From: Mustelus asterias
Lineage: Eukaryota
NCBI RefSeq assembly: GCF_964213995.1
Contig: NC_135815.1
Coordinates: 75,392,001-75,456,000, forward strand
Direction of reading: 5' to 3'
Length of the DNA: 64,000 bases
Positions 9,433 through 49,500 of this stretch are shown piece after piece. The stretch's first letter is position 1; every line of letters starts with the position of its first letter. The position numbers were made by a program, and so were the translations under genes. The notes under the pieces were generated by a model, which did no database searches, was not told the origin of the DNA, and saw only the letters and a list, made by a program, of their open reading frames with translations.

Positions 9433-10870
9433 TTTTATATCAATTAACCCTTGATTATTTGCATATGGTGAGTGGGTTGCAAATTCTAGCGTCCACCCAC
9501 CTACTGTTATGGGGATGAGCTTTGAGGTGGGCGGGAAGGTGGCAGGCACCTATTTTATGATCCCCCCCCCGCCCCCCCCCCCCCCCAAACACAGAAAAGC
9601 TAGCAATATATAGGTGGAAAGTTTGTTCACAGACTATGTCGATTCTCCAGTGGGCGGACAGTGCCACTGCCCATACTGCCCATTACTTGTACGGCCCACA
9701 CATCATTCTCGATAATAATGCCATGCTGACCACCCAGGTAATAGCTTGCATTGCATTGCTGCGCAAACAAATTCTATACTCACCCCCCACCCCACCATCC
9801 ACAAGAGTTTTAAGGTTGCTTTACAACTTCACTTGTGTTAATACAAGTTATTCTCTCTGCATCAACCAGTTTTCTTTGTCCTGGATCAAGAATGGTATTT
9901 GAACTAGATTTCCTGCTATTCATGGCCATTAGACAAAAAATCCACTTCATGGATATCACAACAATTATATATATATATATTATATATATTGGCAATCTCT
10001 CGCAGCCTAACCAGCAGTTTTTAAAGGGACTGCTGAGGGCCACCATGTTAGTATTCTTTCATGAACAAAATGCATTTTCTCTCTTACTGTCTGTAATCAG
10101 TATTTTGCATGGAAAGAGGTGTGTGTGTCTTTTCTTATCCTTTATTCTAATTCAATGCAGAGCAAGCTTTTGAGTTTAAAATAAAGAGGTTGTTTATTCT
10201 CACATTTACCTCGAGTTAATGTGATGTCACACACTTGGTGCCATGCATGTACATACATATGCACACAGACACACTCTCACTGCATTTTTACAGATTATAT
10301 TAATTCTGTCTCATAGACAGTTTCTGGTCTCCCACATAGCAAGCTGGGCTCCCACATTGGTTTCCTGGATGGATGTGATGATTTAAAGTTGAAGTGAGGG
10401 TCTTGTAAAGTCAAGTCTTCACAGCAGATTGTGATGTTTCTTGCAGTCGAAAAAAGATATCTAAAAGGTTGGTTCTCAGGCGGACTTTGAAACTGGAACA
10501 GTTTAAGTACATTGAAACTAGCTACAAGTCATCAAGTAGCCAGAGTCTGGGTTTCAGTCTGGCTGACAACTGATGGTTCTTATGGATCTGCTGGATCCTG
10601 GGGTAATAAAGATGGGAGTCCCTGAAACCAGCTTCAATCACATTGCCACTGGGTCAACACTTATGAGGCCTACCCTGTCACTGATGCAACGGGAAGTTGA
10701 TAGTCACCTTTGTTTTTGATCTTCCCTTTTTTGTCCATGAAACATGGAAACAGGCAGTCTGGAAACTCCTTGTCTTTAGATGTTGGCCCATCCTTACACA
10801 ATGAGACACTGAGATATGTGAATTTCACAAATAGCTGTGAGGTCCCCTCAACTATGTCTACATTTAATTA

Positions 10871-11975
10871 TGATGTGGAGATGCCGGCGTTGGACTGGGG
10901 TAAACACAGTAAGAAGTTTAACAACACCAGGTTAAAGTCCAACAGGTTTATTTGGTAGCAAAAGCCACACAAGCTTTCGGAGCTGCAAGCCCCTTCAGGT
11001 GAGTGGGAATTCTGTTCACAAACAGAGCATATAAAGACACAAACTCAATTTACATGAATAATGGTTGGAATGCGAATACTTACAACTAATCAAGTCTTTA
11101 AGAAACAAAACAATGTGAGTGGAGAGAGCATCAAGACAGGCTAAAAAGATGTGTATTGTCTCCAGACAAGACAGCCAGTGAAACTCAGTGAAACTCTGTG
11201 GGGGTTACAAATAGTGTGCCATGAACCCAATATCCTGGTTGAGGCCGTCCTCGTGTGTGCGGAACTTGGCTATCAGTTTCTGCTCAGCGACTCTGCGCCG
11301 TCGTGTGTCGCGAAGGCCGCCTTGGAGAACGCTTAACCGAATATCAGAGGCCGAATGCCCGTGACCGCTGAAGTGCTCCCCAACAGGAAGAGAACAGTCT
11401 TGCCTGGTGATTGTCGAGCGGTGTTCATTCATCCGTATGCAGACGCTGCGACAATGGATGAATGAACACCGCTCGACAATCACCAGGCAAGACTGTTCTC
11501 TTCCTGTTGGGGAGCACTTCAGCGGTCACGGGCATTCGGCCTCTGATATTCGGGTAAGCGTTCTCCAAGGTGGCCTTCGCGACACACGACGGCGCAGAGT
11601 CGCTGAGCAGAAACTGATAGCCAAGTTCCGCACACACGAGGACGGCCTCAACCGGGATATTGGGTTCATGGCACACTATTTGTAACCCCCACAGAGTTTC
11701 ACTGGCTGTCTTGTCTGGAGACAATACACATCTTTTTAGCATGTCTTGATGCTCTCTCCACTCACATTGTTTTGTTTCTTAAAGACTTGATTAGTTGTAA
11801 GTATTCGCATTCCAACCATTATTCATGTAAATTGAGTTTGTGTCTTTATATGCTCTGTTTGTGAACAGAATTCCCACTCACCTGAAGAAGGGGCTTGCAG
11901 CTCCGAAAGCTTGTGTGGCTTTTGCTACCAAATAAACCTGTTGGACTTTAACCTGGTGTTGTTAAACTTCTTACT
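10871..11975. mobile_element. Penelope-like element, 5'-truncated, with inverted pseudo-LTRs forming a ~1.07-kb near-perfect palindrome
   Basis: 37-nt tail (10871-10907), arms 10908-11434 and 11456-11975, 21-nt spacer, TSD ACATTTAATTA (10860-10870 / 11976-11986). Both arms encode the GIY-YIG C-terminus (MNEHRSTITRQDCSLPVGEHF...EQKLIAKFRTHEDGLN). Confidence 0.93.
11879..11915 (+). ncRNA. Minimal type I hammerhead ribozyme motif in a PLE pseudo-LTR
   Basis: CAC-CTGAAGA-A-GGGGC-ttgca-GCTCC-GAAA-GCTT-GTG. Contains the core boxes CUGANGA and GAAA, a 5-bp stem II, stem I CAC/GTG, a palindromic AAGCTT stem III, and a predicted CUU cleavage triplet. Confidence 0.8.
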
Positions 11976-12147
11976 ACATTTAATTAGGCATTCACCAGAA
12001 ATTTGATACTGTCTGTCGTCCAAATGCCAAAAGTCACATGATTTGCAGCAGGCATCTTATCAGCCTGTTTGTACCCGATTTTAAAAATATTGACAAACTT
12101 CAAAATATGAATTTATATTCACTTACGGGATGTGGGTGTCATTGGTT

Positions 12148-13094: not shown

Positions 13095-13149
13095 GGTTAA
13101 GCCAACATGTCTGCTGTGAGCATGACATTTAAATAATACTTGCCTTAAT

Positions 13150-13700
13150 GTGGAACCAAGAGGTACAGGATGCTCTTGCCCTCTCCACATTAAGGCTACA
13201 GGCCACTACTTTTGGGTTAAGCAGCATTTCACTTGCACTTCCTTCAATTTTGGCTACTGTATTCACTGCTCCCAATGTGGTCCCCTCTACACTGGGGAAA
13301 CTAAACGCAGACTGGGTGACGTCTTTGCAGAGCACCTTTGCCCAGTCTGCAAGCATGATCCCTGCCTTCCTGTTGCTTGTCATTTTAAGTCAACACCTTG
13401 CTCTCATGTCCATCCTTGGCCCACTGCAATGCTCCAGTGGAGGAACAGCATCTCATCTTCTGATTATGCGCAGTCCAGCCCTCAAGACTCAACACTGAGT
13501 TCACGAATTTTAGACTGTAACCTTTCTCCTCCATCTTAAAACCTTTAACAAAATCCCTTACATTTATTGTCTCAATGCAATAACCCTCCCCCCCCCCCCC
13601 CCCCACACCAGGCCATCTGTCTTTTTTTTAAAGATTGTTGCAATCTCTCCCAGCTTCAGTTTAATATCTAACACATTTCTCCTGAACGTTAACTCTGATT
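13150..13700 (+). mobile_element. Degenerate PLE GIY-YIG endonuclease fragment (a different, older family)
   Basis: FTCTSFNFGYCIHCSQCGPLYTGETKRRLGDVFAEHL...LPVACHF. Confidence 0.75.
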
Positions 13701-15556: not shown

Positions 15557-17816
15557 CATAGAGTCAGAGAGGTTTACAGCATGGAAACAGGCCCTTCGGC
15601 CCAACTTGTCCATGCCGCCCTTTTTTTTTAAGAAATCCCAAAGCTAATCCCAATTGCCCGCATTTGGCCCATATCCCTCTATACCCATTGTACCCATGTA
15701 ACTATCTAAATGCTTTTTAAAAGACAAAATTGTACCTGCCTCTACTACCACCTCTGGCAGCTTGTTCCAGACACTCTCCACCCTCTGTGAAAAAATTGCC
15801 CCTCTGGACACTTTTGTATCTCTCCCCTCAAACCTATGCCCTCTAGTTTTAGACTCCCCTACCTTTGGGAAAAGATATTGACTATCTAGCTGATCTGTGC
15901 CCCTCATTATTTTATAGACCTCTATAAGATCACCCCTCAGCCTCCTGTGCTCCAGAGAAAAAAGTCCCAGTCTATCCAGCCTCTCCTTATAACTCAATCC
16001 ACCAAGTCCGGGTAGCATCCTAGCAAATCTTTTCTGCACTCTTTCTAGTTTAATAATATCCTTTCTATAATAGGGTGACCAGAATTGCACACAGTATTCC
16101 AAGTGTGGCCTTACCAATGTCTTGTACAACTTTAACAAGACATCCCAACTCCAGTATTCAATGTTCTGACCAATGAAACCAAGCATGCCGAATGCCTTCT
16201 TCACCACTCTGTCCACCTGTGACTCCACTTTCAAGGAGCTATGAATCTGTACTCCTAGATCTCTTTGTTCTGTAACTCTCCCCAACGCCCTACCATTAAC
16301 TGAGTAAGTCCTGCCCTGGTTCAATCTACCAAAATGCATCACCTCGCATTTGTCTAAATTAAACTCCATCTGCCATTCGTCAGCCCACTGGCCCAATTGA
16401 TCAAGATCCCATTGTAATTGGAGATAACTTTCTTTGCTGTCCGCTCTGACACCAATCTTCGTGTCATCTGCAAACTTACTAACCATGCCTCCTATATTCT
16501 CATCCAAATCATTAATATAAATGACAAATAACAGTGGACCCAGCACTGATCCCTAAGGCACACCGCTGGTCACAGGCCTCCAGTTTGAAAAACAATTCTC
16601 TACAACCACCCTCTGGCTTCTGTCACGAAGCTAATTTTGTATCCATTTAGATACCTCGCCCTGGATCCTGTGAGATTTAACCTTATGCAACAACCTACCA
16701 TGCGGTACCTTGTCAAAGGCCTTGCTGAAGTCCATGTAGACAACATCAACTGTACTGCCCTCATCTACCTTCTTGGTTACCCCTTCAAAAAACTCAATCA
16801 AATTTGTGAGACATGATTTTCCACTCACAAAGCCATGCTGACTGTCCCTAATCAGTCCTTGCATCTATAAATGCCTGCAGATCCTGTCTCTCAAAATACC
16901 TTCCAACAATTTACCCACCACAGATGTGAGGCTCACTGGCCTGTAGTTCCCAGGCTTTTCCCTGCAGCCCTTTTTAAACAAAGGCACAACATTTGCCACT
17001 CACCAATCTTCAGGCACCTCACCCGTGACTATCGATGATTCAAATATCTCTGCTAGGGGACTCGCAATTTCCTCCCTAGCCTCCCATAATGTCCTGGGAT
17101 ACACTTCATCAGGTCCCAGGGATTTATCTACCTTGATGCGCATTAAGGCTTCCAGCACCTCCTTCTCTGTAATATGTACACTCCTCAAGACATCACTATT
17201 TAGTTCCCCAAGTTCCCTAACATCCATGCTTTTCTCAACAGTAAATACTGATGAGAAATATTCATTTAGGATCTCACCCATCTCTTGTGGATCCGCACAT
17301 AGATGACCTTGTTGATCCTTAAGAGGCCCTACTCTCTCCCTTGTTACTCTTTTGCCCTTTATGTATTTGTAGAAGCTCTTTGGATTCTCCTTTGCCTTAT
17401 CTGCCAAAACAATCTCATGTCTCCTTTTGCCCCCTGATTTCTCTCTTAACTCTACTCCTACACCCCCTATACTCTTCAAGAGATTCACTTGATCCCAGCT
17501 GCCTATGCACGTCATGTGCCTCTTTCTTCTTCTTGACCAGGACCTCAATATCCCGAGTCATCCAGGGTTCCCGACTTCTGCCAGCCTTGCCCTTCACTCT
17601 AAGAGGAATGTGTTTACCCTGAACCCTGGTTAACACACTTTTGAAAGCGTGCCACTTACCAGACATCCCTTTGCCTTCCCACAGACTCCCCCAATTAACT
17701 ATTGAAAGTTTCTGCCTGATACCATCAAATTTGGCCTTGCCCCAATTTAGAATTTTAACTTTTGGGCCAGACCTATCATTCTCCATAGCTATCTTAAAAC
17801 CAATAGAATTATGGTC
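15557..17816 (-). mobile_element. CR1 LINE ORF2, 3' part (outer element of a nested pair)
   Basis: ORFs 15644-16546, 16631-16864 and 17000-17786 contain SQHGFVSGKSCLTNL, DFSKAFDKVPH, KFADDTK and LVRPHLEYCVQFWSP. The 3' end carries the CR1 terminal motif and a CTCTATG-type repeat. Confidence 0.95.
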
Positions 17817-20800
17817 CCAGGCCGTGGAGAGGTCTGGGAAGGTTTTTTTTCTTTAAAAGTTACTTACCTTAGAGGATCGACCTCATTGTTCCACCGGAGC
17901 AAGCAGAGAGGGAGCGATTCATGTCAGGAGTGCTGAGGGTAAGAGATTGATTTTTTTTTAACCTTACTTTTTAGCGGAGTTTTTTTTTCAGTTAAACAGG
18001 AAACCAGAAGTAGGCCGCTGAGAGGCCTGGAAAGGTTTTTTGCCCAATAAATTTGAACGGGGAGGAAACCCGAGACTCTACACGTGTAGAGCCTCCCACC
18101 CTCCACCCTTCTCTAACCTAAAAAAAAGACTCGAGTGAGAGCAGGTAAGCTTTTTTTTTCTCTCTTTCGTTTCTTGGTAAAGGAAATTAGCAGGGATGTC
18201 AGTGCAGGCGGTGCAACGTTCCTCCTGCGGGATGTTTGAGGTGAGGGATACCAGTGTCCCGGCTGAGTACACCTGCAGGAAGTGCACCCAATTCCAGCTC
18301 CTTGAAGACCGTGTTAGGGATCTGGAGCTGGAACTGGATAAACTCAGGATCATTCGGGAGGCAGAGGCAGCTATAGATAGAAGCTACAGGGAGGTAGCTA
18401 CTCCTAGAAATGCTGATACGTGGGTGACGGCTAGAGGGGGTAAGAAGCAGTCAGAGCAGCGATCCCCTGGATCTCCTGTTTCTCTGTATAACAGGTATTC
18501 TGTTTTGGATACTGTTGGGGGGGGGGGGGAGGCAGGGGGGAACTTAACAGGGGTAAGCCATGGGGTACAGGTCTCTGGCACAGAGTCTGTCCTTGTTGCT
18601 CAGAAGGGAAGGGGGGGAGGAGTAGAGCATTAGTTATTGGGGACTCCATAGTTAGGGGGATAGATAGGAGATTCTGTGGGAACGAGAGGGACTCGCGGCT
18701 GGTGTGTTGCCTCCCAGGTGCCAGGGTCCATGATGTCTCGGATCGTGTTTTCGGGATCCTTAAGGGGGAGGGGGACCAGCCCCAAGTCGTGGTTCACATA
18801 GGCACCCAAGACATAGGTAGGAAAAGGGATGGGGATGTAAGGCAGAAATTCAGGGAGTTAGGGTGGAAGCTTAGGGCTAGAACAAACAGAGTTGTTATCT
18901 CTGGTTTGTTACCCGTGCCACGTGATAGTGAGGAGAGGAATAGGGAGAGAGAGCAATTGAACACGTGGCTACAGGGATGGTGCAGGAGGGAGGGATTCAG
19001 ATACCTGGACAATTGGGGCTCATTCTGGGGTAGGTGGGACCTCTACAAACGGGATGGTCTACACCTGAACCCGAGGGGTACCAATATCCTGGGGGGGAAA
19101 TTTGCTAATGCTCTTCGGGAGGGTTTAAACTAATTCAGCAGGAGGATGGGAACCTGAATTGTAGCTCCAGTGTACAGGAGGTTGAGAGTAGTGAGGTCAT
19201 GGATAAGGTTTCAACGTCGCAGGAGTGTACTGGCAGGCAGGAAGGTGGTTTGAAGTGTGTATACTTCAACGCCAGGAGCATCCGGAATAAGGTAGGTGAA
19301 CTTGCAGCATGGTTTGGTACCTGGGACTTCGATGTTGTGGCCATCTCGGAGACATGGATAGAGCAGGGACAGGAATGGTTGTTGCAGGTTCCGGGGTTTA
19401 GATGTTTCAGTAAGAGCAGGGAAGGTGGTAAAAGAGGTGGAGGTGTGGTATTGTTAGTCAAGGACAGTATTACGGTGGCAGAAAGGATGTTTGATGAGGA
19501 CTCGTCTATTGAAGTAGTATGGGCTGAGGTTCGAAACAGGAAAGGAGAGGTCACCCTGTTGGGAGTTTTCTACAGGCCTCCGAAAAGTTCCAGAGATGTA
19601 GAGGAAAGGATTGCAAAGATGATTCTGGATAGGAGTGAAAGTAACAGGGTAGTTGTTATGGGGGACTTCAACTTTACAAATATTGACTGGAAAAGCTATA
19701 GTTCGAGTACTTTAGATGGGTCAGTTTTTGTCCAATGTGTGCAGGAGGGTTTCCTGACACAGTATGTAGATAGGCCAAGAGGCGAGGCCACATTGGATTT
19801 GGTACTGGGTAATGAACCAGACCAGGTGTTAGATTTGGAGGTAGGTGAGCACTTTGGTGATAGTGACCACAATTCGGTTACGTTTACTTTAGCGATGGAA
19901 AGAGATAGGTATATACCGAAGGGCAAGAGTTATTGCTGGGGGAAAGGAAATTATGATGCGATTAGGTGAGATTTAGGATGCATAGGTTGGGGAAGGAAAT
20001 TGCAGGGGATGGGCACAATAGATAAGCTGCAGAGCTGGGCTGAGAGGTAGCAAATGGAGTTTAATGCGGAAAAGTGTGAGGTGATTCACTTTGGACGGAG
20101 TAACAGGAATATAGAGTACTGGGCTAATGGTAAGATACTTGGTAGTGTGGATGAACAGAGAGATCTCGGTGTCCATGTGCATAGATCCCTGACAGTGGCA
20201 CCCAGGTTGATAGGGTTGTTAAGAAGGCGTACCTCTTTATTGGTGGAGGGATTGAGTTTCGGAGCCATGAGGTCATGTTGCAGCTGTACAAAACTCTGGT
20301 GCGGCCGCACTTGGAGTATTGCGTACAGTTCTGGTCGCCGCATTATAGGAAGGATGTGGAAGCATTGGAAAGGGTGCAGAGGAGATTTACCAGGATGTTG
20401 CCTGGTATGGTGGGAAGGTCTTCTGAGGAAAGGCTGAGGGACTTGAGGTTGTTTTCGTTAGAGAGAAGGTTAAAAGGTGACTTAATAGAGGCATACAAGA
20501 TGATCAGAGGATTAGATAGGGTGGATAGTGAGAGACTTTTTTCCTCGAATGGTGATAGCTCGCACGAGGGGACGTAGCTTTAAATTGAGGGGTGATAGAT
20601 ATAGGACAGATGTCAGAGGTAGGTTCTTTACTCAGAGTAGTAAGGGCGTGGAATGCCCTGCCTGCAGCAGTAGTGGGCTTGCCAACATTAAGGGCATTTA
20701 AATGGTCATTGGATAAACATATGGATGATATTGGAATAGTGTAGGTTAGTTGGGCTTTTGATTGGTTTCACTGGTCGGCGCAACATTGAGGGCCGAAGGG

Positions 20801-20830
20801 CCTGTACTGCGCTGTAATGTTCTATGTTCT
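17817..20830 (+). mobile_element. CR1 LINE with 5' UTR, ORF1 (zinc finger, leucine zipper, SGNH esterase), APE endonuclease and an internally deleted RT
   Basis: ORF1 in two frames: SSCGMFEV...YTCRKCTQFQLLEDRVRDLELELDKL, then VIGDS, VHIGTQD and DGLHLNPRG (GDSL/SGNH blocks). ORF2 has YFNARSIRNK, VAISETW, GDFN and SDHNSV. It then jumps at ~20020 to QMEFNAEKCEVIHFG and ends in (TGTTCTA)2. Confidence 0.95.
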
Positions 20831-21405
20831 AAAGCGATCCCTCACTAACACTTCTGTCACCTGCCCTTCCTTATTTCCCAAGAGGAGGTCAAGTTTTGCC
20901 CCCTCTCTAGTCGGGCCATCCACATACTATGAGAAATTCCTCCTGAATACACTCAACAAATTTCTCTCCATCCAACCCTCTAATACTATGGCTGTCCCAG
21001 TCAATGTTGGGAAAGTTAAAATCTCTGACTATTACCACCCTATTTTTCTTGGAGCTATGTGTAATCTCCTTCCATATTTGCTCCTCAATTTCTCGCCGAC
21101 TATTTGGCGGCCTATAGTACAACCCTATCAAAGTGATTTCCCCCTTCTTATTTCTCAGTTCTACCCAGATAGACTCAGTGGCCGAACCCTCGGATATATC
21201 CCCTCTCAGTACGGCCATGATGCTTTCCCTAATCAAAAATGCAACTCCCCCTCCTCTCTTACCTCCTGTTCTATCTTTCCTTTCGCATCTGTATCCTGGA
21301 ACATTGAGCTGCCAGTCCTGTCCCTACCGTAGCCGTGTTTCAGTACTTGCTATAATATCCCAGTCCCATGTACACATCCATGCACTGAGTTCATCTGCTT
21401 TGCCC
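20831..21405 (-). mobile_element. CR1 LINE ORF2, 5' part (APE domain of the outer element that continues at 17816)
   Basis: GKADELSAW, IASTET, ESIWVELRNKKG, YYRPPNS and DFNFPNIDW motifs. Ends at GQVTEVLVRDRF and resumes with DHNSIGFKIAMEND below 17816. Confidence 0.9.
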
Positions 21406-23361
21406 TGGTCTGGAATTTCTGATCCAAGTATTACATTGATGAGCACTGCACTGATCATAGAAACATAGGATTTAGGAACAGGAGCAGACCATTCGGTCCT
21501 CAAAGTCTGTTCTGCCATTCAATAGGAACCTCTGCTGATCTTATTTCACTTTCCTGTCCAACTCCTAAAACACTTGACTCCTTTTATCTACCAAAAATCT
21601 GTCACAAATAAATTCAATACCACAGCCTCCACTGCTCTCTGGGGAAGTACATGTCCATTACTAATGACCCTCAAAGAAAAAAAATCTCATCTCAGTCTTA
21701 AACTCTCATTCTTGAACTGTGTCCCCTAGTTCTGATCTCCCCTACAAGTGAAAACATCCTCCTGATCAAATCCCCTCAAGATCTTATGGGCAGAATTTTA
21801 CATGTACTAGACAGGCAAGTGACTGACCTGGAAGCATGTGAAATAGCATGTGATGACATTGGACGCGCATCCTGACATCACCATACACTCACAGAGCAGA
21901 GGTGTGGATCAGCATGTGCCCTCCGACAATTATGCAGCCACTTGAAGGGATTTTCTCCCAATATATTACTTTGCCTGGGCAATTTTAAGCTTGTTGCACA
22001 GACAACACATGTAGGCTGACCAACCCTCTGCGCATGGGTCAGCTCAATTTGCATACCTGCAGATGGGTATAGTATGCTCAGCAGGGAGGACATGGTACAA
22101 AGGCCTGGTGCTCACAGGTATCACCCTTAGGCAGACACACAGGTTGATCAAGGTCTCAGTCCCGTCCCCAAATCTACCCAAATAAACAGGAGTGGAAAAA
22201 GCTGACCAGTGTCGTTCCAGAATTTATTTGCACTTTGAAGGATTAAATGGCCCTGAGATTCACTAGGTTCTGCTGATGTACAGTTCTAATTTGGGCAGAA
22301 CCTTGGCTAAACTCCGAGAGCATTTTTAGTTGTTTTCTCTGAGAGCTCTACAGATTTTTCTACTGGAGCTACAGCAATAGGTCAGGAGAACACCTGCAGA
22401 AATTCAGAGCACATTCTCTAAACAGGTAGTCTAGAGTCTGTGGTACACCTTAGAATTCACATTTTTAAATGCAAATTTTATTTTGTTCGGTGTCTGGTTA
22501 CATTTGTTTAAAATAATCGCTGAAGGAATATTTCAATATTTGAAGGCACGGAGTTGTTCATTTTGATTTTTGCAGTTTCTAGCAATCATAATTCAACAAT
22601 GCAATTTCTTAGAAACCTAACAGATTCAACTGTAATAAAATATACCTGAGCTATTCACATTGTGGTAAGCTTTGTGGTTTTTTAATTCATATGCAGGATG
22701 TGGTTGCTGGCAAGGCCAGCATTTCATGCCCATCCCAAGTTGCCCTTGAAAAAGTGGCAGTGAACCACTGCAGTCCATCTGGTGTAGGTACACCAGAATG
22801 TTGTTTGGGAGGGAGTACCAGGATTTTAATCCAGTGATAGTGAAGGAATGGCAACATATTTCCAAGTGAGGAGTAACTTGGAGAGGAACTTGCAGGTGGT
22901 AGTGTTCCAGGTGTCTGCTGCCCGTGTTCTTCTAGATGTTGGTGGTCATGAGATTGGAAAATGCTGTCTAAGGAGGCTTGGTGAGTTCCTGCAGTGCAAC
23001 TTGTAGATAGTACCAGCATTGTGCACTGTTCCCTGGTGGTGGAGGGAGTGAATGTTTTGTGGAAGGGGTGCCAATCGAGCAGACAGCTTTTGTCTTGGAT
23101 AGTTTCAATCTTCCTGAGTGTTGTTTGAGCTGCACTCAACCAGGCAAGTGGAGAGTATTCCATCACACTCCTGACTTGTGCCTTGTAGATGGTGGACAGG
23201 CTTTAGAGAGACAGGAGGTGAGTTACTCACCACAGGATTCCTAGCCTCTGAGCTGCAGTAGCCACAGTATTTATATGACTCATCCCATTCAGTTTCTAGT
23301 CAATGGTGACTCACTCACGGGATGTTGATATGGGGGATTCAGTGATGGTTAGATTCTCTCT

Positions 23362-23665: not shown

Positions 23666-23925
23666 AAATTAGTTTCACGATCATCCTCAGCTTTTCAATT
23701 TCAGCTTTCATTTTAATTTTACCATCTGCCATGGTGGGATTTGAACCCAGATCCCTGGAGCATTTCATTGGGTCTCTAGATTACTAGTCCAATAACAATA
23801 CCACTATGCCACCACCTCCCTGAGTTCTCTTGTTCGAGATGTCATTGCCTGGTACTTATGCGGCATGGATGTTACTTGCCACTTGTTAGCCCAACCCTGG
23901 ATATTGCCCTGGTATGCTGTATTTG

Positions 23926-24073
23926 TGATGTGGAGATGCCGGCGTTGGACTGGGGTAAGCACAGTAAGAAGTCTCTCAACACCAGGTTAAAGTCCAACAG
24001 GTCCGAAAGCTTATGGTATTTGCTACCAAATAAACCTGTTGGACTTTAACCTGGTGTTGTGAGACTTCTTACT
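23926..24073. mobile_element. 148-bp miniature PLE hairpin insertion
   Basis: Same 37-nt tail as 10871 (one mismatch), 40-nt inverted arms (23963-24002 / 24034-24073, one mismatch), 12-bp TSD ATGCTGTATTTG (23914-23925 / 24074-24085). Confidence 0.92.
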
Positions 24074-24359
24074 ATGCTGTATTTGGACATGGACTGCTTC
24101 AGTATCTGAGGAGACATAAATGGTGTTGAACATTGTGTAATCATCACTGAACATTGCCACCTCTGACCTTATGATGGAGGGAAAGTCATTGTCCATCCAT
24201 GCATGCCAACTGTCTTTATATTGACAGGGAACTTTACAGAATTTGTGAGGTAGATTTTCAATTTGCTATCCAGGCTGTGAAACTGAAATCAATGGGAATA
24301 CAAAATCAAGGAGTTTATATAACAAGCGAATGACATTTCAAATGCATCCCATTTACTCC

Positions 24360-25045: not shown

Positions 25046-25509
25046 TGACCATTGTTCACATTAATTTTATAAAATCATTAATATAAATCATCTTCTATGG
25101 GAAGGTGCTGTGCAAGGGGATTAAAACTCTGCGATATAAGAGGGTATGAATTCCTAATTTCATGGAAATAAGAATATTGATTTGATTTATTATTGTCACA
25201 TGTATTAACATACAGTGAAAAGTATTGTTCCTTGCGTGCTATGCAGACAAAACATACCGTTCATAGAGAAGGAGATGAGAGAATGCAGAATGTAGTGTTA
25301 CAGTCATAGCTAGGGTGTAGAGAAAGATCAACTTAATGCAAGGTAAGTCCATTCAAAAGTCTGACAGCAGCAGGGAAGAAGCTGTTCTTGAGTCGGTTGG
25401 GTCGTGACCTCAGACTTCTGTAACGCCGGCATCTCCACATCAGTGTTAATGTTATCCAGTGGGATAAGAATGAGACCAGAGGGAGCAGCTGCGGGGTAGG
25501 GGCTGACAG

Positions 25510-26580
25510 CCTGTGTATATGGAGGGCTTGTCCAGAGGAATGGCTTCTTTAATGTGTTTAGGATGGAAGCTGGAGAAGTGGAGCATCGTGAGGTTATCCG
25601 TGGGCTTGCGGTAAAGTGAAGTGCTGAGGTGACCGTCCTTGATGGAGATGCGTGTGTCCAAGAATGCAACCGATTCTGGAGAGTAGTCCATGGTGGGTCT
25701 GATGGTGGCATGGAACTTGTTGATGTCATCATATAGTTGTTTCAATGATTGTTCGCCATGAGTCCAAAGGAAGAAAATGTCATCGATGTGTCTAGTGCAT
25801 ATCATCGGTTGAAGGGCCTGTGCGGTGAAGAGACCTTGTTCGAACCTGTGCATAAAGATGTTGGCATATTGAGGTGCGAATTTGGTCTCCATGGCTGTTC
25901 TGTGTGTCTGGATGAAGAACTGGTTGTTGAAGGTGAAGACATTGTGGTCCAGGATGAAGCGGCTGAGTTGTAGAATTGCATCTGGAGATTGGCAGTTGTC
26001 GGCGTTGAGTACTGAGGCAGTTGCAGCAATGCCGTAGCCGTGGGGGATGCTGGTGTAGAGTGTTGAGACATCCATTGTGACGAGGAGTGCTCCTGGTTCA
26101 ACTGCTCCATGTGTGCTGAGTTTCTGTAGGAAGTCCGTAGTGTCACAACAGAAGCTGGAGGTTCTTTGTACAATGGGTTTCAAGATGCCCTCGACGTAGC
26201 CGGAGAGGTTCTCGCACAGGGTCCCATTGCCTGACATGTATGACCCAAGCACAATGCAACGCCATCTGTGCTCTCAAGACCAACCGCAACATTATCATCA
26301 AACCAGCCGACAAAGGAGGGGCCACTGTCATACTGAACAGAACGGTTTACTGCAAAGAAGTGTACCGACAACTGAACAACCAGGAACACTACAGATGGTT
26401 ACCCGCAGATCCGACCAAAGAACACACTCGTCAACTCAACAGACTGATCAAGACCTTTGACCCAGACCTTCAGAGCACCCTCCTTGCTCTCATCCCACGT
26501 TGGAGATTTCTACTGCCTCCCGAAGATACACAAGGCCAACACACCGGGCCGTCCCATCGTATCAGGCAATGGGACCCTGT
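25510..26580. mobile_element. PLE reverse transcriptase fragment with a 5' inversion
   Basis: Minus strand 26234-25510 has VTMDVSTLYTSIPH, TAMETKFAPQYANIFM, RHIDDIF and LYRKPTD. Plus strand 26240-26580 has IIIKPADKGGATVILN and FYCLPKIHKANTPGRPIVSGNGT. Confidence 0.9.
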
Positions 26581-27390
26581 CTGAGGTGAGTCTCTGCGCT
26601 GGTAGAAGGTGCTGGTGAATTTGTTGTTATCCTTGGACCTGAGGTCCAGGTGCTCTGAGGGGACAGAGGGAGGGCTGTGAGCCGGATGGTCCAGCGTTAT
26701 CTGATCCTGGAAGAGAAATGCCATGGGGTCAGCTGTTGAGAATAACAAGGGTATGGGAAATGATAGACTCACTTGAGAGAGGTAATTTGGATAAAGTGCA
26801 TTGGACACTCTCTTCCTTGGGGCATTCCGACTTTGCAAATAGCCACTGCCTGCTCACAGGCATCCCCCTCTCCTCAAAGGGGGTGAGGACGCCGAGCTCG
26901 GGCATGCTCCCGCTTGTATTTCCATGCTCCCTCTTGTTGTGGTCTCTCTTGTCCTATGAGGACACAACGAGGACATTGAGATGGTAGCCTGGCGGCTATG
27001 GGAGGGGCTTCACTGCTGGTGGCATGTGTGAGCACTGCAACCAGCCTATGAGAGGTAGTGATGGGGGTTGCTTGGGGGTTGTGGGGGGTGTTATAGGAGA
27101 TTCCGGTAGTTCAGGTATTTGAATGTTGCAAAGGTTTAAACTGAGATGACAGAGGTTAGGGATGGGAGTGATGCCAGGGCAAACAGGTGGGTACTCACCT
27201 TTGTAGCTCAGAGTAGGTCATTCAGCTTCTTTTGGCACTGAAGTGTGGTCCTCCTTGTGATGCTGTTGCAACTGATTGCCTCTGCCACCGCATCAGCCAT
27301 CAGATTGGCAGGTTGTCTCTTCCCTTGGAGGAGCCTTGGAAACCGGATGGTCGCCCTCTCCTCGGTGGCATCCAGCATCTGGCCAACGTC
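26581..27390 (-). mobile_element. Harbinger-type Myb/SANT-like gene relic, spliced
   Basis: AVAEAISCNSITRRTTLQCQKKLNDLL followed by a GTGAGT donor (27198-27193). The next exon has ELGVLTPFEERG. 66-nt intron at 26707-26772. Confidence 0.65.
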
Positions 27391-30509: not shown

Positions 30510-32505
30510 GGGAGTAATGTAAAAAGGAAAAGATTTGTGAAGACAAAGTCCCTCACAGTCTGAAACAGGATAATTTATAAGAGAGAACATAGAAACATAG
30601 AAACCCTACAGTGCAGAAGGAGGCCATTCGGCCCATCGAGTCTGCACCGACCACAATCCCACCCAGGCCCTACCCCCACATATTTTACCCGCTAATCCCT
30701 CTAACCTACGCATCCCAGGACTCTAAGGGACATTTTTTTAACCTGGCCAATCAACCTAACCCGCACATCTTTGGACGGTGATTCCCTGAATTCCCGCTAA
30801 TTCCCTGAACATGGGGAGCTAGTGTAAATCCCGTCAGACTGATGTACTCCTGGCAGGGTGGGAGATTCAATCGGGACCTGAAAGTTCGCAATAATGAACT
30901 GCTAAGCATATTTAAAATACATTGAAAAAAGATTCAAATGACTTACCTGCCTTCCTGCCAGTTTCCAAAGGAAAAGGCAGAGCAATTAAAAATTACTTTA
31001 GTTCTGTCTTCATGGAGGAAGACACAAATAACTTCCCAGAAATGTTAGGGAAGGAGAAATTTAAGGAAATAATGGCCACGATTCTCCCAAAAGTGCTGAA
31101 TTGGCGGGAAAACTGTTCTAAATCCTGACTGTTTTGTCAGTTCAGCTTCTCACCTGAATCTCCGCACTCTGTGCATTGCAGAGGTCCCAGTCGTGAATAT
31201 CATTAAAAACCCAAGGGCGGGGCCTATTCACGCCAGAGTATGACAGTTCTGGAACTCTGCGCATGCATAGTGGCTCCGATCTGTCAGATTCCCCATTTGC
31301 TGGCCAGCTGAATCGCTGGCCAGCCCGGGACCCCGCAGTGCTGCCCCGCCAGCTCCCCAAGCAGTGGCGATTTTCCCCCCTAGCCCATCCCAATCACTGC
31401 GTTCCCTCCAGCCCCAACTGATCCTGTCTGCAGAGTGGCAGCAGGACCCCCACCTATCACCCCTAGGCCCTGCCCACAATAGGCCCCGCTCCCTTGGCAT
31501 AGCCCGATGCCTGGTGGGCAGTGCCAAGGGACACAGGCTGGCACTGCCAGGGTACCCATGCCCGGGGAGCACCCCCCCCCCCCCCCACTGCCCGACCCTC
31601 TGGGGGGCCCTGATTGCCCTCCTTCATTCCAGCGGGGTCTCCCGCTAATTCCCTGAACGTGGGGAGCTAGTGTAAACCCCGTCAGACTGATGTACTCCTG
31701 GCAGGGTGGGAGATTCAATCGGGACCTGAAAGTTCGCAATAATGAACTGCTAAGCATATTTAAAATACATTGAAAAAAGATTCAAATGACTTACCTGCCT
31801 TCCTGCCAGTTTCCAGCGTGATCTGATCGGCGACTGTTCACCGGCTCTGGGAGATGCGCATGCGTTCCCAGTGCAAATCCTGATACAAGGCTGGCGACGC
31901 GCATCTCCCACTGCGACCCGCCAGAAAGGTTGTGGGTCGCGATGAGAGAATCGCAGCCAATATTACCAAAAAAATTGCAGGAGAAATTAATGGGACTGAA
32001 AGCTAGGGCTTGATCTACATCCCAAGGTACTAAAGGAGGTGGCTATGGAAATAGTGGATGCATTGGTTGTCATCTTCCAAAATTCCATAGATTCTGAAAC
32101 CGTCCCAACAGATTGGAAGGTGGCAAATGTAACCCTGCTATTTAAAAAATAGAGGGAGAAAACCGGGAACTACAGACCCGTTAGCCTAACATCCATTGTA
32201 GGGAAAATGCTCGAGTCTATTACAAGGATGTGATAACAGGACACTTAGAAAGTATCAACGAGATTAGACAAAGTCATATGGATTTATGAAAGGGAAATGA
32301 TGTTTGACAAATCTACTGTAGCTTTTTGAGAACATAACTAGCAGAATAGATGAGGGTGAACCAGTGGATGTGGTATCTTTAGATTTTCAGGAAGTTTTTG
32401 GTAACATCCCACACAAGAGATTAACGTGCAAAATTTAAAGCACATGGAATTGGGGGTAATGTATTGGTATTGATTGGGAATTGGTAAGTAGATAGGAAAC
32501 AGAGT
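30510..32505 (+). mobile_element. Degenerate CR1 ORF2 fragment hosting two younger insertions
   Basis: NYFSSVFMEED, DWKVANVTLLFKK, GNYRPVSLTSIVGKMLES and GFMKGK motifs. Confidence 0.8.
31074..31958. mobile_element. PIF/Harbinger-type MITE, 885 bp
   Basis: TIRs GGCCACGATTCTC / GAGAATCGCAGCC, 3-bp TSD AAT (31071-31073 / 31959-31961), GC-rich interior. A related copy lies in the opposite orientation at ~56789-57715. Confidence 0.8.
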
Positions 32506-34352: not shown

Positions 34353-36039
34353 CTCAGGCTTCATTTTGATTTGATTTATTATTGTCATATGTATTAGTAT
34401 ACAGTGAAAAATATTGTTTTTGTGCACTATACAGACAAAGCATACCAATCATAGAATACATGGGGAGAAGGAAAGGAGAGAGTGCAGGATATAGTATTAC
34501 AGTCATAGCTAGGGTGTAAAGAAAGATCAATACGGGGTAGGTCCATTCAAAAGTCTGATGGCAGCAGGGAAGAAGCTGTTCTTGAGTTGGTTGACACGTG
34601 TAATAATGCATTATTCGAGTTTAAAAGAGTTAGAATAAAGTTTGGAAACATAGAACGAGAGTAAAAGATTAGAATTCGAGGGCACAGCTTGCAAGAAGTT
34701 GCCACACTCCGGCGCCATCTTGAAAGGTGGTGGGCCATTCATCTCCACTTGCTTCATATTTCATCCTTCTGACTCTCCAATAACTCTCCCCAAAGTCGGT
34801 GTCTCTGATCTGATTTTGAAATAAAAGAGATGACATATCAGGGTTGGGGATGAAGTAGTGTCAGTTGAGAATCTGAATATACAGAAGATTCCACTCCGAA
34901 AGTGGTGGGGTGATTATTTGAGTGACCAGCCTCTACTTGCACGACGGCCCTTTGTATAATGCAGAAGAACTGTTTGCGCTTTCACCATTTTGCATTCCAT
35001 CTTGAAGAAATAATGATCGATTGCTGGCATTTCAGATAACGTTGCTATTATCTATGATGAATATTTCCAAGCCTTACCACCATTTTGTTGCCACCTTGCC
35101 TCCAGCTTTGGTATTTCCCATAGTCTCGAATCTGCCTGCATATGATTTACATGGCCCCAGCCCATGTGAACATGGCTTTCAGTGCTGGTGCTACTTCCCC
35201 AGTTGCATTTCTCCGATGTTGCTAATAAGCTGAAGTTTTCTCAAGTGAGAAGGCATAACTTTAGAAGCATGTGAGTAGTATGGACACATCATATGAGCAG
35301 ATGAATTCCATGATTACGAGAAAGATATTCCCTATAAATGAAATGTCCTTGAAGATGAGCAGAAACCATTATGTAAATTGTAAACAGTTGTTTTGTTTAA
35401 AGATGGTACAGCTGGAAATCAGGGAGTTAGCCCTTCTTCCTTCTGACTGCCCCCATCCGCAGGCTACTCAAGACATCTGAGCCTCACTACCGTTGAAAAA
35501 TGGATGGCTGCCACTTGCCTTTTAAAAGCTGCACCAGCAACCAACTCCCACCACTGGCAACTTAATGAAGTGTTGTATTATTGCTCCAAACAAACTGCAA
35601 ATGAAGGTGCCTAGAAGCAAAGGTGAGCAATTTAGTGACAGATTGTTATCCGCTGGTGTTCATCACATACTCTCCCTAATCTGCCAACAGAAGGAGAATC
35701 TGGCCCGTGGTGACCAGCGTTTGAGCGATGAATATGTCTTGGAGAAATGAACTTTGTCCAGCTGGAAAAGAGAAATCTCTGAGTAAAATAAAATAGTTAA
35801 GAGAATGTAAAATGTAAACTTGGTGCATTACTACCAATGGAATAGAGCAGGATGAGAAAACATAGATTTGAACTCTTAAAGGAATGTCAGGAAATTCTTT
35901 ACACAAAGAATAATCAATGGACAAAATAGATTTCCAGACAGTGCAGGAGGAAAACTTGGAATCTAATTATCTCTGAGGGATCATCGTCTTCTCTAGTCTA
36001 TTAAAAGACACAGCTGCAAAATTTCCACCAGTGTTCACC

Positions 36040-36975
36040 AGAAACATAGGAAGCATGGTTAGTAAGTTTACAGATGACACCAAGATTTGTGGCATAGTGG
36101 ACAGTGAAGAAGGCTATCTTGGATTGCAATGGGATCTTGATCAATTGGGCCAGTGGGATGACGAGTGGCAGATGGAGTTTAATTTAGATAAATGTGAGGT
36201 GATGCATTTTGGTAGATTGAACCAGGGCAGGACTTATTCAGTTAATGGTAGGGTGCTGGGGAGAGTTACAGAACAAAGAGACCTAGGGGTACAGGTTCAT
36301 AGCTCCTTGAAAGTGGAGTCACAGGTGGACAGAGTGGTGAAGAAGGCATTCAGCATGCTTGGTTTCATTGGTCAGAACATTGAATACAGAAGTTGGGATG
36401 TCTTGTTGAAGTTGTACAAGACATTGGTAAGGCCACACTTGGAATACTGTGTACAGCTCTGGTCACCCTATTATAGAAAGGATATTACTAAACTAGAAAG
36501 AGCGCAGAAAAGATTTACTAGGATGCTACCGGGACTTGATGGTTTGAGTTATAAGGAGAGGCTGGATAGACTGGGACTCTTTTCTCTGGAGCGTAGAAGG
36601 CTGAGGGGTGATCTTAGAGGTCTATAAAATAATGAGGGGGATAGATCAGCTAGAAAGTCAATATCTTTTCCCAAAAGTAGGAGAGTCTAAAACTAGCGGG
36701 CATAGGTTAAGGTAAGAGGGGAGAGATACAAAAGTGTCCACAGGGGCAATTTTTTCACAGAGGGTGTTGAGTGTCAGGAACAAGCTGCTAGAGGAGGGTA
36801 CAATTTTGTCTTTTTAAAAAGCGTTTGGACAGTTACATGGGTATGATGGGTATAGAGGGCTATGGGCCAAATGCGGGCAATTGGGACTAGCTTAGGGGTT
36901 TAAAAAAAAAAGGGCGGCTTGGACAAGTTGGGCTGAAGGGCCTGTTTCCATGCTGTAAACGTCTATGACTCTATA
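36040..36975 (+). mobile_element. 5'-truncated CR1 LINE, same subfamily as 15557-16520
   Basis: ORF 36031-36627 is nearly identical in protein to 15644-16546, and the 3' end CTGTAAACGTCTATGACTCTAT is nearly the same. Confidence 0.93.
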
Positions 36976-41577: not shown

Positions 41578-43008
41578 AGTAAGAGTTTTAACAACACCAG
41601 GTTAAAGTCCAACAGGTTTATTTGGCAGCAAATACCATAAGCTTTTGGAGCGCTGCTCCTTCGTCAGATGGAGTGGAAATGTGCTCTCAAACAGTGCACA
41701 GAGACACAAAATCAAGTTACAGAATACTGATTAGAATGTGAATCCCTACAACCAGCCAGGTCTTAAAGATACAGACAATGTGGGTGGAGGGAGCATTAAG
41801 CACAGGTTAAAGAGATGTGTATTGTCTCCAGACAGGACAGCCTGCAAGTCCAGGAGGCAAGCTGTGGGGGTTACTGATAATGTGACATAAATCCAACATC
41901 CTGGTTTAGGCCGTCCTCATGTGTGTGGAACTTGGCTATCAGTTTCTGCTCAGCGACTCTGCGCAGTCGTGTGTCGTGAAGGAGAGCGCTTACCTGAAGA
42001 TCCGAGGCTGAATGCCCGTGACTGCTGAAGTGCTCCTCCACAGGAAGAGAACAGTCTTGCCTGGTGATTGTCGAGCGGTGTTCATTCATCCGTTGTCGTA
42101 GCGTCTGCATGGTTTCCCCAATGTACCATGCCTCGGGGCATCCTTTCCTGCAGCGTATCAGGTAGACAACGTTGGCCGAGTTGCAAGAGTAGGTACCGTG
42201 TACCTGGTATATGGTGTTCTCACGTGAGATGATGGCATCCGTGTCGATGATCCGGCACATCTTGCAGAGGTTGCTGTGGCAGGGTTGTGTGGTGTCGTGG
42301 TCACTGTTCTCCTGAAGGCTGGGTCGTTTGCTGCGGACAATGGTCTGTTTGAGGTTGCGCGGTTGTTTGAAGGCAAGAAGTGGGGATGGCCTTGGCGAGA
42401 TGTTCGTCTTCATCAATGACACGTTGAAGGCTCTGGAAGAGATGCCATAGCTTCTCCGCTCCAGGAAGTACTGTACTGGACTGTCCCGTGTTTGTCTTCT
42501 GAGGAGGTTGGTGCGGTTTTTCGCTGTGGCGCGTCGGAACTGTTGATCGATGAGTCGAGCGCCATATCCTGTTCTTATGAGGGCATCTTTCAGCGTCTGG
42601 AGGTGTCTGTTGTGATCCTCCTCATCCGAGCAGATCCTGTGTATTCGGAGGGCTTGTCCGTAGGAAATGGCTTCTTTAACGTGTTTAGGGTGGAAGCTGG
42701 AGAAGTGGAGCATCATGAGGTTATCCGTGGGCAGAGACTCACTAACTGTCCTGGCTGGAGACAATACACATCTCTTTAACGTGTGCTTAACCCTCTCTCC
42801 ACTCACATTGTCTGTACCTTCAAGACTTAATTACCTGTAAAGACTCGCATTCCAACCATTATTTTGTAAATTGAGTTTGTCTTTATATGCCCTGTTTGTG
42901 AACACAACTCCCACTCACCTGATGAAGGAGCAGCACTCTGAAAGCTTGTGGCTTGTGCTACCAAATAAACCTGTTGGACTTTAACCTGGTGTTGTGAGAC
43001 TTCTTACT
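41578..43008 (-). mobile_element. Penelope-like element: RT C-terminus, GIY-YIG endonuclease and pseudo-LTR, with an inverted pseudo-LTR at the truncated 5' end
   Basis: ORF 41871-42806 has SSFHPKHVKEAISYGQALRIHRICS and NVVYLIRCRKGCPEAWYIGETMQTLRQRMNEHR. Termini AGTAAGAG...AACACCAGGTTAAAGTCCAACAGG and its inverse. Confidence 0.92.
42916..42950 (+). ncRNA. Minimal type I hammerhead ribozyme motif in a PLE pseudo-LTR
   Basis: CAC-CTGATGA-A-GGAG-cagca-CTCT-GAAA-GCTT-GTG, with intact core boxes. Confidence 0.78.
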
Positions 43009-43680: not shown

Positions 43681-44480
43681 TTGGCATTAGGTGGGATTTC
43701 TGCCCTCAGTCATGTCCCTTTGCGACTCCAGGCCTCGAGCAGAGACCTCTGCAGCATCCTCCAGTCCTCTGCACACAAGTGCATCCGTAAGGTGACAGAT
43801 GCCCTGTGCGCCTGGGCAGGCCACTACATGCACTTTAACCTGACCCAGGCCCAACAGGATGCCCGGGCTGCAGGCTTTGCCACCATCAACAGGATGCCCC
43901 ATGTGCAGGGGGCTATCGACAGAATGCACCTTGCCCTGTGGGCCCCATGGAATCCCTTTATTAATTGGAAGGGGTTCCACTCCCTTACCGTCCAGATTTT
44001 GTGTGACCACCTGCTGAACATCATGCAGATATGTGCACACAACCCAGGGAGCAAGCACGACGGCTACATCCTTAGGAGCTTGTGCATTCCCAGCGTCTTT
44101 GAGGACCACCCCAGACTGCAGGGAGGGCTCATGGACAAAGGCTGAGGTCATTGGTTGATGATGCCAGTGTGGAGGCCTGAGACCGAGGAGGCCACATGTT
44201 GCCATATGATCCGTCATCCAGCGGTCCACCGGGCTCTTGAAGATGTGATTCCGCTCCCTGGACCGCTTTGGCGGTGCACTACTGTACAGCTCCCTGAGGG
44301 TCTCCAGCATAGTGTTGGTCTGTTGTGTGCTCCACAACCTGGCGCAGCAGTGGGGAGACATCCTGGAGAAGGAAGAGGACAGTACAGACACCCTGCGAAG
44401 GACAAGGCCCAGGAGGACCCGGAGGATGGAGGACAGACGGCGAGGGAGGCTCTCATCATCGCAAGGTTCTCCCACTCGGT
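43681..44480 (+). mobile_element. Harbinger (HARBI1-like, DDE_Tnp_4) transposase pseudogene fragment
   Basis: SSAHKCIRKVTDAL, PHVQGAIDRMH, FINWKGFHSLTVQ, PGSKHDGYIL, LMDKG*, LKM*FRSLD and VCCVLHNLA motifs, with stops and frameshifts. Confidence 0.88.
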
Positions 44481-49328: not shown

Positions 49329-49500
49329 GTGGAGATTGAGAAATTAGACTACCACCATTATCTGCCTCTGTTCTTTGATGGTCTCTGTGATACTACGCAC
49401 CCATATGACTTCTTTGCACGGCAGGGGATACATGACATGCTGGAACATGGTGGCATGAAGATTCTTCCCGTTATCCCTCAGCTAATCATCCCAATAAAAA
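49329..49500 (+). CDS. PACRG: Internal coding exon of Parkin co-regulated gene protein (probably equivalent to mammalian exon 3), 172 nt, starts in phase 0, ends in phase 1
   Basis: Translates to [57 protein letters not shown], which I recognise as the conserved PACRG core. Acceptor is ttgttttcttgcAG (AG at 49327-49328) and donor is GTaaga at 49501. Confidence 0.96.

Follow-up and report, generated by a model that had tools for sequence, protein, structure and literature searches.

The window considered here, that is, the entire 64-kb stretch of Mustelus asterias DNA, which is without any N, carries a Penelope-like element (PLE) whose whole insertion is a 1.07-kb palindrome, and, 37,343 nt downstream of it, a coding exon of PACRG (Table 1). 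The exon matches the Pfam family ParcG at E=6e-24, and its 57 codons show no difference from the PACRG of Scyliorhinus, Cetorhinus, and Mustelus. No further PACRG exon was found in the window, either by tblastn with 11 cartilaginous-fish PACRG proteins or by an HMM search of 3281 six-frame peptides. An initial reading of this DNA from its letters alone (the sequence-only reading) had placed the palindrome inside a PACRG intron; the downstream exon of such an intron is present at 49329-49500, no upstream exon lies in the window, and we infer that the palindrome sits in the intron preceding this exon, which would then be longer than 49 kb.

Table 1. Features of the palindromic insertion and other landmarks of the window
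Feature	Position	Strand
Left target-site duplication (TSD), 11 nt (13 with the 2 bases common to the element end)	10860-10870	+
PLE tail, 37 nt, at this end only	10871-10907	-
Left arm, tailed cDNA; last 76 endonuclease codons, 3' region, and pLTR; minus-strand sense	10908-11436	-
Left-arm hammerhead motif, catalytic core broken by 3-nt deletion; missed by the core pattern	10965-11006	-
10-nt tandem duplication, left arm only; 10-nt bulge in the predicted RNA hairpin	11177-11196	+
Unpaired 17-nt loop; coding sequence of the element that runs on from the tail-less arm	11437-11453	+
Endonuclease GIY-YIG, C-terminal 82 codons; 5'-truncated, lacking the GIY-YIG motif and the entire RT	11437-11685	+
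Right arm, tail-less cDNA, 539 nt including the loop; + sense = PACRG strand	11454-11975	+
Donor-like site at 11553/11554, right arm	11545-11562	+
Minimal type I hammerhead motif, full core, 6-bp stem II, palindromic helix III remnant	11874-11918	+
Right TSD	11976-11986	+
Second, independent head-to-head insertion	23914-24085	.
Third head-to-head structure: minus arm 1154 nt with full endonuclease domain, plus arm 277 nt	41578-43008	.
PACRG coding exon, 172 nt, AG/GT ends	49329-49500	+

The 11-mer ACATTTAATTA has two occurrences on the + strand of the window, and these are the copies of the TSD at either edge of the insertion. The TSD can be read as 11-13 nt in length because two bases are common to the target and the element end. 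Local alignment yields a left arm of 527 nt (10908-11434) and a right arm of 520 nt (11456-11975) with 21 nt between them; the arms differ by four substitutions (11336/11554, 11319/11571, 11236/11654, and 11139/11741) and by two indels on the left-arm side, namely the 10-nt tandem duplication and a gap of 3 nt. These values reproduce the arm lengths, gap, few substitutions, and indels that had been claimed, and the one-sided 37-nt tail and the 11-bp TSD of the same account were both located; the inverted arms, the tail on one side, and the one TSD around both likewise uphold its view of a single PLE insertion. A refinement comes from position 11455, which is T here and C in the related copy at 41578-42731, i.e., a CpG change: once this is recognized, the arms reach two bases further inward, the loop is 17 nt, and the total of arm substitutions becomes five. 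The palindrome is far beyond chance. Among 200 first-order Markov simulations of the element, the longest inverted exact match was 20 nt (mean 10.5), against perfect inverted runs of up to 146 nt in the real element, while identical 11-mers 1000-1200 nt apart arise by chance at a rate of 8e-7 per position-offset cell.

The copy is a dead, 5'-truncated insertion of an EN+ Penelope-like retrotransposon. The 82 amino acids of the right arm are 80% identical to the C-terminus of P0121, a shark RT-EN protein that represents 54 member sequences, which confirms, for the C-terminus, the earlier claim that the arms hold a GIY-YIG region; the RT is wholly absent because the copy is 5'-truncated, and Pfam returns no family for either arm peptide. 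The related copy at 41874-42830 matches PF01541 at E=8.7e-4 and 20 bits, under the cut-off of 22.6, and used as a query, that at 41578-42731 retrieves 13 longer proteins, 11 of which are named shark models. P0121 (Heptranchias perlo), P0122 (Mustelus asterias), and P0123 (Scyliorhinus torazame) belong to the same family as the palindrome, with 71-78% identity to the 41.9-42.7 kb copy and 80% to the palindrome's 82 aa; they are near full length, whereas the palindrome retains the last 82 codons only. RVT_1 is found in all four homologs (above the cut-off in three) and the DKG motif in 3/3, so that the family shows the EN+ PLE order, with the RT ahead of the EN in a single ORF. Between the GIY and YIG half-motifs, the related 41.9-kb copy and the three homologs scanned have two Cys, in accord with the CCHH motif of EN+ PLEs; they also have a CX2-5CxxC linker motif, which lies upstream of the palindrome's truncation point. 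Such a motif in the RT-EN linker is the mark of the Neptune and Nematis clades, and Neptune is, of these two, the one reported in fishes. The linker motif and the known presence of Neptune in fishes thus point to the palindrome being the 3' end of a shark Neptune-type PLE. A MITE or fold-back DNA transposon is ruled out by the polar tail and the retroelement ORF fragment. The 37-nt tail had no match among bacterial and archaeal genome contigs. Five of the 13 protein matches (P0126, P0128, P0129, P0130, and P0133) are shark models of host genes—NOXP20-like, septin 5a, XRCC5, PPP1R12A-like, and USP8—with pieces of this PLE endonuclease, P0133 agreeing at 97% with 39 aa at the start of the right arm; these pieces may be either exonisation or annotation error.

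As a motif, the right-arm sequence corresponds to a minimal type I hammerhead: the core boxes, the extra base between 9 and 10.1, G10.1-C11.1, and the palindromic 15.2-16.2 are all present, in keeping with the layout of metazoan PLEs described in PMC4209133. The left-arm core is incomplete through the 3-nt deletion, which falls in the first core box. Across four copies, 31 of the 32 cells of stems I and II are paired, with one pair showing a two-sided change; this pairing is no better than that of shuffles (136/500 reach the same with four sequences). Rfam at the gathering score gave no match across the 64-kb window, and none of six single-strand folds of hammerhead and tail beat shuffles (z -0.94 to 0.43), so that claims of structure depend on the motif and the pairing pattern.

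A self-comparison (BLAST) of the window provided an inventory of further copies, among them two more head-to-head structures of the same family, by which the head-to-head form can be seen as a habit of the family. The one at 23914-24085 has a TSD of 12-13 nt, a tail of 37 nt, arms of 40 nt, and a spacer of 31-33 nt coming from the tail-less arm; its tail (23926-23962) differs from that of the palindrome at 1/37 positions. The one at 41578-43008 is without a tail, and a TSD search with offsets up to 40 nt recovered only 6-7 nt matches of element sequence. Its arms are 18% divergent, one of the differences being a two-sided change in stem I of the hammerhead, and hence are not from one RNA and may not be from one event: a single event may have drawn on two RNA templates, or a deletion may have brought two insertions together. 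The arms of the palindrome are 88-93% identical to the other copies in the window and have family-private indels that are common to both arms and absent from those copies. In addition, a same-family RT fragment at 25422-26585, with an internal inversion at 26237/26240, has the terminal 21 nt of the tail ahead of it on the + strand, and an older divergent PLE endonuclease relic lies at 13126-13539 (+), with ~31% identity to P0121/P0124 over 57-70 aa.

The center of the palindrome has a definite polarity. The spacer is the element's own coding sequence, running on without a break from the tail-less arm, and compared with the related copy, the junction at 11436/11437 is blunt, with no common and no added bases. 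At 23.9 kb, the spacer is likewise part of the tail-less arm, with one common base at the junction. If the two halves are read as cDNAs primed from each TSD, their lengths are 559 and 539 nt in the palindrome (559 being 566 minus the duplication plus the deletion) and 76-77 and 71-72 nt at 23.9 kb. Both tailed copies accordingly combine a spacer on the tail-less arm with near-equal cDNAs. The + strand begins at the RNA tail end and the minus strand exactly 37 nt in, and all six arm ends of the three structures halt at one internal position or continue into the tail. Had the tailed strand simply folded back, the loop would sit on the tailed arm; it does so in neither of the two tailed copies, and this origin is excluded for them. 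The literature consulted, which was largely open-access, yielded no report of shark PLE palindromes or of spacer polarity, which figures or supplements may show. Two lesser observations concern the ends. At 10871-10950 (minus), the internal start site falls in the loop of a 9-bp stem with its 3' side in the tail, and this stem is present in both tailed copies, with a stability not above that of shuffles. Also, target and tail-less element end have 1-2 bases in common (10858-10859/11974-11975 and 23913/24073), which faintly suggests that primer and template paired at the internal start.

The anatomy of the palindrome, its family, the polarity of its spacer, and its recurrence are matters of observation. 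The palindrome was made at integration, and for the route we lean toward priming from both target strands. The endonuclease would nick the two strands of an AT-rich target at points 11-13 nt from each other, and each 3'-OH would prime reverse transcription, one strand at the tail-end RNA site and the other at a second fixed site lying 37 nt deeper. Both cDNAs would halt after ~540-560 nt, the tail-less one extending 17 nt further, and they would be joined end to end without homology, with fill-in giving the TSD. Priming from both strands is favored by the single TSD that encloses both arms, by starts that are 37 nt apart with every arm end obeying one internal position, by the spacer polarity and near-equal cDNAs in 2/2 tailed copies, and by a junction microhomology of 0 and 1 nt. 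It also has a biochemical precedent in the Poseidon PLE protein of a lizard, which cleaves and extends both target strands, favors AT-rich DNA, and starts reverse transcription at two sites delimiting the tail (PMC11167929). The same precedent weakens the case, as the element is of the Poseidon clade and its start sites in vitro showed no difference from one strand to the other, and the later steps are unvalidated there. It is further weakened by the small number of tailed copies (n=2, the palindrome itself being one of them), by the third structure with its unequal and divergent arms (1154 versus 277 nt) and neither tail nor TSD, and by the 4-bp mini-hairpin (-2.4 kcal/mol) in the loop, which would suit snap-back priming.

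More tentatively, priming from both strands may be given a specific form, in which a dimeric RT-EN would prime from each nicked strand at a fixed position of its own on the RNA, the two positions being separated by 37 nt, and its RTs would proceed in step and stop together. The spacer would then always be that of the tail-less arm, its length being 37 nt less the lag (in these copies, 17 and 31-33 nt). Were this so, a single step would explain why PLEs have both a tail and an inverted structure, self-folding dsRNA would be the default product of truncated insertions, and the place of Penelope among the most edited repeats of lizard and frog would be accounted for.

The same spacer polarity and short loops would result if the tail-less cDNA had folded upon itself and copied itself, with a short tailed cDNA from the other strand finishing the end. 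This is possible but doubtful. Self-priming is the published reading of palindromic PLE junctions (PMC3846280), and both the mini-hairpin within the 17-nt loop and arms that are 99% alike would fit it; however, in-register complementarity at the junction amounts to 0 nt here and 1 nt at 23.9 kb, and a second priming event is still required for the tail. Self-copying also leaves unexplained why the spacer plus the length difference equals the tail length and why both spacers are under 37 nt, and it cannot yield arms from two subfamilies, as at 41.6-43.0 kb. That third structure fits neither single-RNA version of the mechanism. The third structure may have come from two independent insertions in opposite orientation joined by deletion, given its divergent arms and the TSD not found there, but such joining, or homogenization by conversion, is most improbable for the palindrome with its single exact TSD at both outer ends, its family-private indels common to both arms, and the recurrence of this layout, with a separate TSD, at 23.9 kb. 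A fold-back artefact of sequencing or assembly, although long inverted repeats do trouble assemblies (PMC8557442), is just as improbable in view of the unique flanks with a TSD on both sides in a window free of N, the one-sided tail matched by that of another copy, and seven differences spread over both arms, three of them at CpG.

In its general plan the palindrome conforms to what is known of PLEs. Inverted truncated copies with a one-sided tail of 30-40 nt are a published layout (PMC8557442), and insertions with 9-10 bp TSDs and palindromic junctions have been described (PMC3846280); the corresponding marks here are the one-sided tail of 37 nt and TSDs of 11-13 nt and, at 23.9 kb, 12-13 nt. 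A close parallel is with Pen2/Pen2a of Adineta vaga, which share with it the head-to-head inverted 5'-truncated copy and the palindromic junction and, in the scheme of PMC8557442, the tail of 30-40 nt at one end and a TSD of ~9-13 bp. Unlike in Pen2/Pen2a, the shark arms are almost equally truncated, which renders the whole insertion palindromic. Anolis Poseidon PAc (PMC11167929) resembles the shark element, as read here, in that two RT starts delimit a tail downstream of the hammerhead, the target is AT-rich, and both strands are nicked and extended, as seen in vitro for PAc and proposed for the shark element. It differs in clade, PAc being of Penelope/Poseidon and the shark family having the extra Cys linker motif of Neptune/Nematis. 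The main text of PMC11167929 accounts for the tail and offers no derivation of the inverted structure.

A parallel might also be struck with the twin priming of L1, wherein both target strands prime reverse transcription and an inversion arises inside one TSD. There, the second primer lands far upstream by microhomology and the pieces do not overlap; in the shark element, the second start would have a set position, at 37 nt from the other, and the pieces duplicate each other. Thus, the palindrome is ruled out as a member of the L1 type, its arms duplicating the same 520 nt, though the two may work alike.

Polarization by related copies and homologs assigns two derived substitutions and both indels to the left arm and three substitutions to the right arm, with one substitution polarized by CpG logic only and one left-arm change, also found in the 41.6-kb copy, read as parallel CpG decay. 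Three of the five substitutions are CpG transitions, and there are ~20 CpGs per arm. Private changes on both arms, with this share at CpG, indicate that both arms were methylated, are real, and have persisted; CpG decay in both arms also argues against an artefact, which would not show it. Recent gene conversion is ruled out by the private changes on both arms. The divergence of the arms is 0.96% (95% CI 0.3-2.2%). At the mutation rate of the epaulette shark, 7e-10 per generation with a CI of 1.4-14.1e-10 (PMC10587355), this corresponds to an age of 6.9 million generations, or 3.0 million from non-CpG sites, and 1.5-3.4 million at the upper rate—figures that assume arms identical at insertion, are upper bounds if the templates differed, and rest on a rate from another shark. 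The palindrome is therefore young only in comparison with the other copies: the earlier description of it as young holds relative to copies 7-12% away and fails before five substitutions and two indels accumulated over ~1.5-7 million generations.

The same account noted that long palindromes with short spacers are unstable and form cruciforms, which is not borne out here. In yeast, there is a sharp spacer transition at 8-9 bp, with fork arrest and Mre11 attack declining above 8-bp spacers, though 12-bp ones still break (PMC8053094, PMC7999016). The spacer here is beyond that transition and the arm differences have not been homogenized. Cruciform instability as a demonstrated property is ruled out, no central deletion having been seen; instability of the palindrome is possible and not evident.

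A + strand transcript of the palindrome is predicted to fold at -1057.9 kcal/mol into a hairpin of 517 bp, close to the ~520-bp dsRNA that had been proposed for a PACRG-sense transcript. The predicted paired runs are 85, 146, 36, 150, and 100 bp, interrupted by two mismatches and two bulges, and the hairpin contains 282 adenosines. If, as we infer, PACRG transcription crosses the palindrome, the hairpin would probably be A-to-I edited, and the edited hairpin would be degraded with the intron. The proposal of an ADAR substrate is made plausible by precedents of editing: Penelope is massively edited in lizard, and the brain of the elephant shark has 200,171 hyper-edited sites (PMC5625713); in X. 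tropicalis, no families are edited more than Penelope and Harbinger (PMC10636886). The Harbinger of Xenopus and the Penelope of lizard and X. tropicalis are, like the shark copy, self-folding repeats with a short loop and are strong ADAR targets (PMC5625713, PMC10636886); the shark hairpin is predicted at 517 bp versus 200 bp for Harbinger.

A host function or siRNA output of the hairpin is unlikely. An intronic hairpin is nuclear, and editing would weaken it. Still somewhat less probable is a functional source of endo-siRNAs that silences the PLE family in trans, even though the predicted duplex is long and near-perfect, its arms agree at 88-93% with the window's other copies, and siRNAs map to inverted Penelope regions in transgenic D. 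melanogaster (PMC3681739). This precedent is from flies, mouse cells dice long dsRNA poorly (PMC6391682), and nothing marks the palindrome as selected, it being one of three head-to-head copies in 64 kb.

According to the fold model, the hairpin would bury both the right-arm hammerhead and the donor-like site at 11553/11554. Three of the eight shark models examined exit the PLE frame at the codon of this site, and it is from these proteins only that splicing there may be surmised. The donor-like site is in PACRG sense, and the left-arm change at 11336 removes the equivalent minus-strand site. This substitution is one of only two true mismatches of the hairpin and faces the donor's first base.

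The inverted-pLTR layout of PLEs is already published and recurs twice more in the window. The locus itself is of little weight, as it is probably one of very many such relics, an extrapolation only from three in 64 kb. How PLEs form tandem and inverted structures is a stated open question (PMC8557442), for which the palindrome offers a clean specimen. Spacer polarity together with near-equal cDNA lengths makes a simple rule on which thousands of junctions in shark genomes could decide; if true, this rule would tie the integration chemistry of PLEs to how much dsRNA and editing vertebrate introns carry.

Other repeats also occupy the window. A relic of a DDE_Tnp_4 (Harbinger-like) transposase at 43681-44145 is matched by Pfam at E=6.6e-5, under the cut-off. 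Long LINE-like ORF pieces, which we take to be CR1-like, lie on both strands at 15558-21470 and 35977-36974, with RT and endonuclease motifs recognizable by eye; 15558-16498 and 36043-36974, oppositely oriented and separated by 20 kb, share 90% identity. Finally, a direct repeat of 176 nt is found at 30792-30967 and 31640-31815, its units being 98.9% identical and 848 nt apart.
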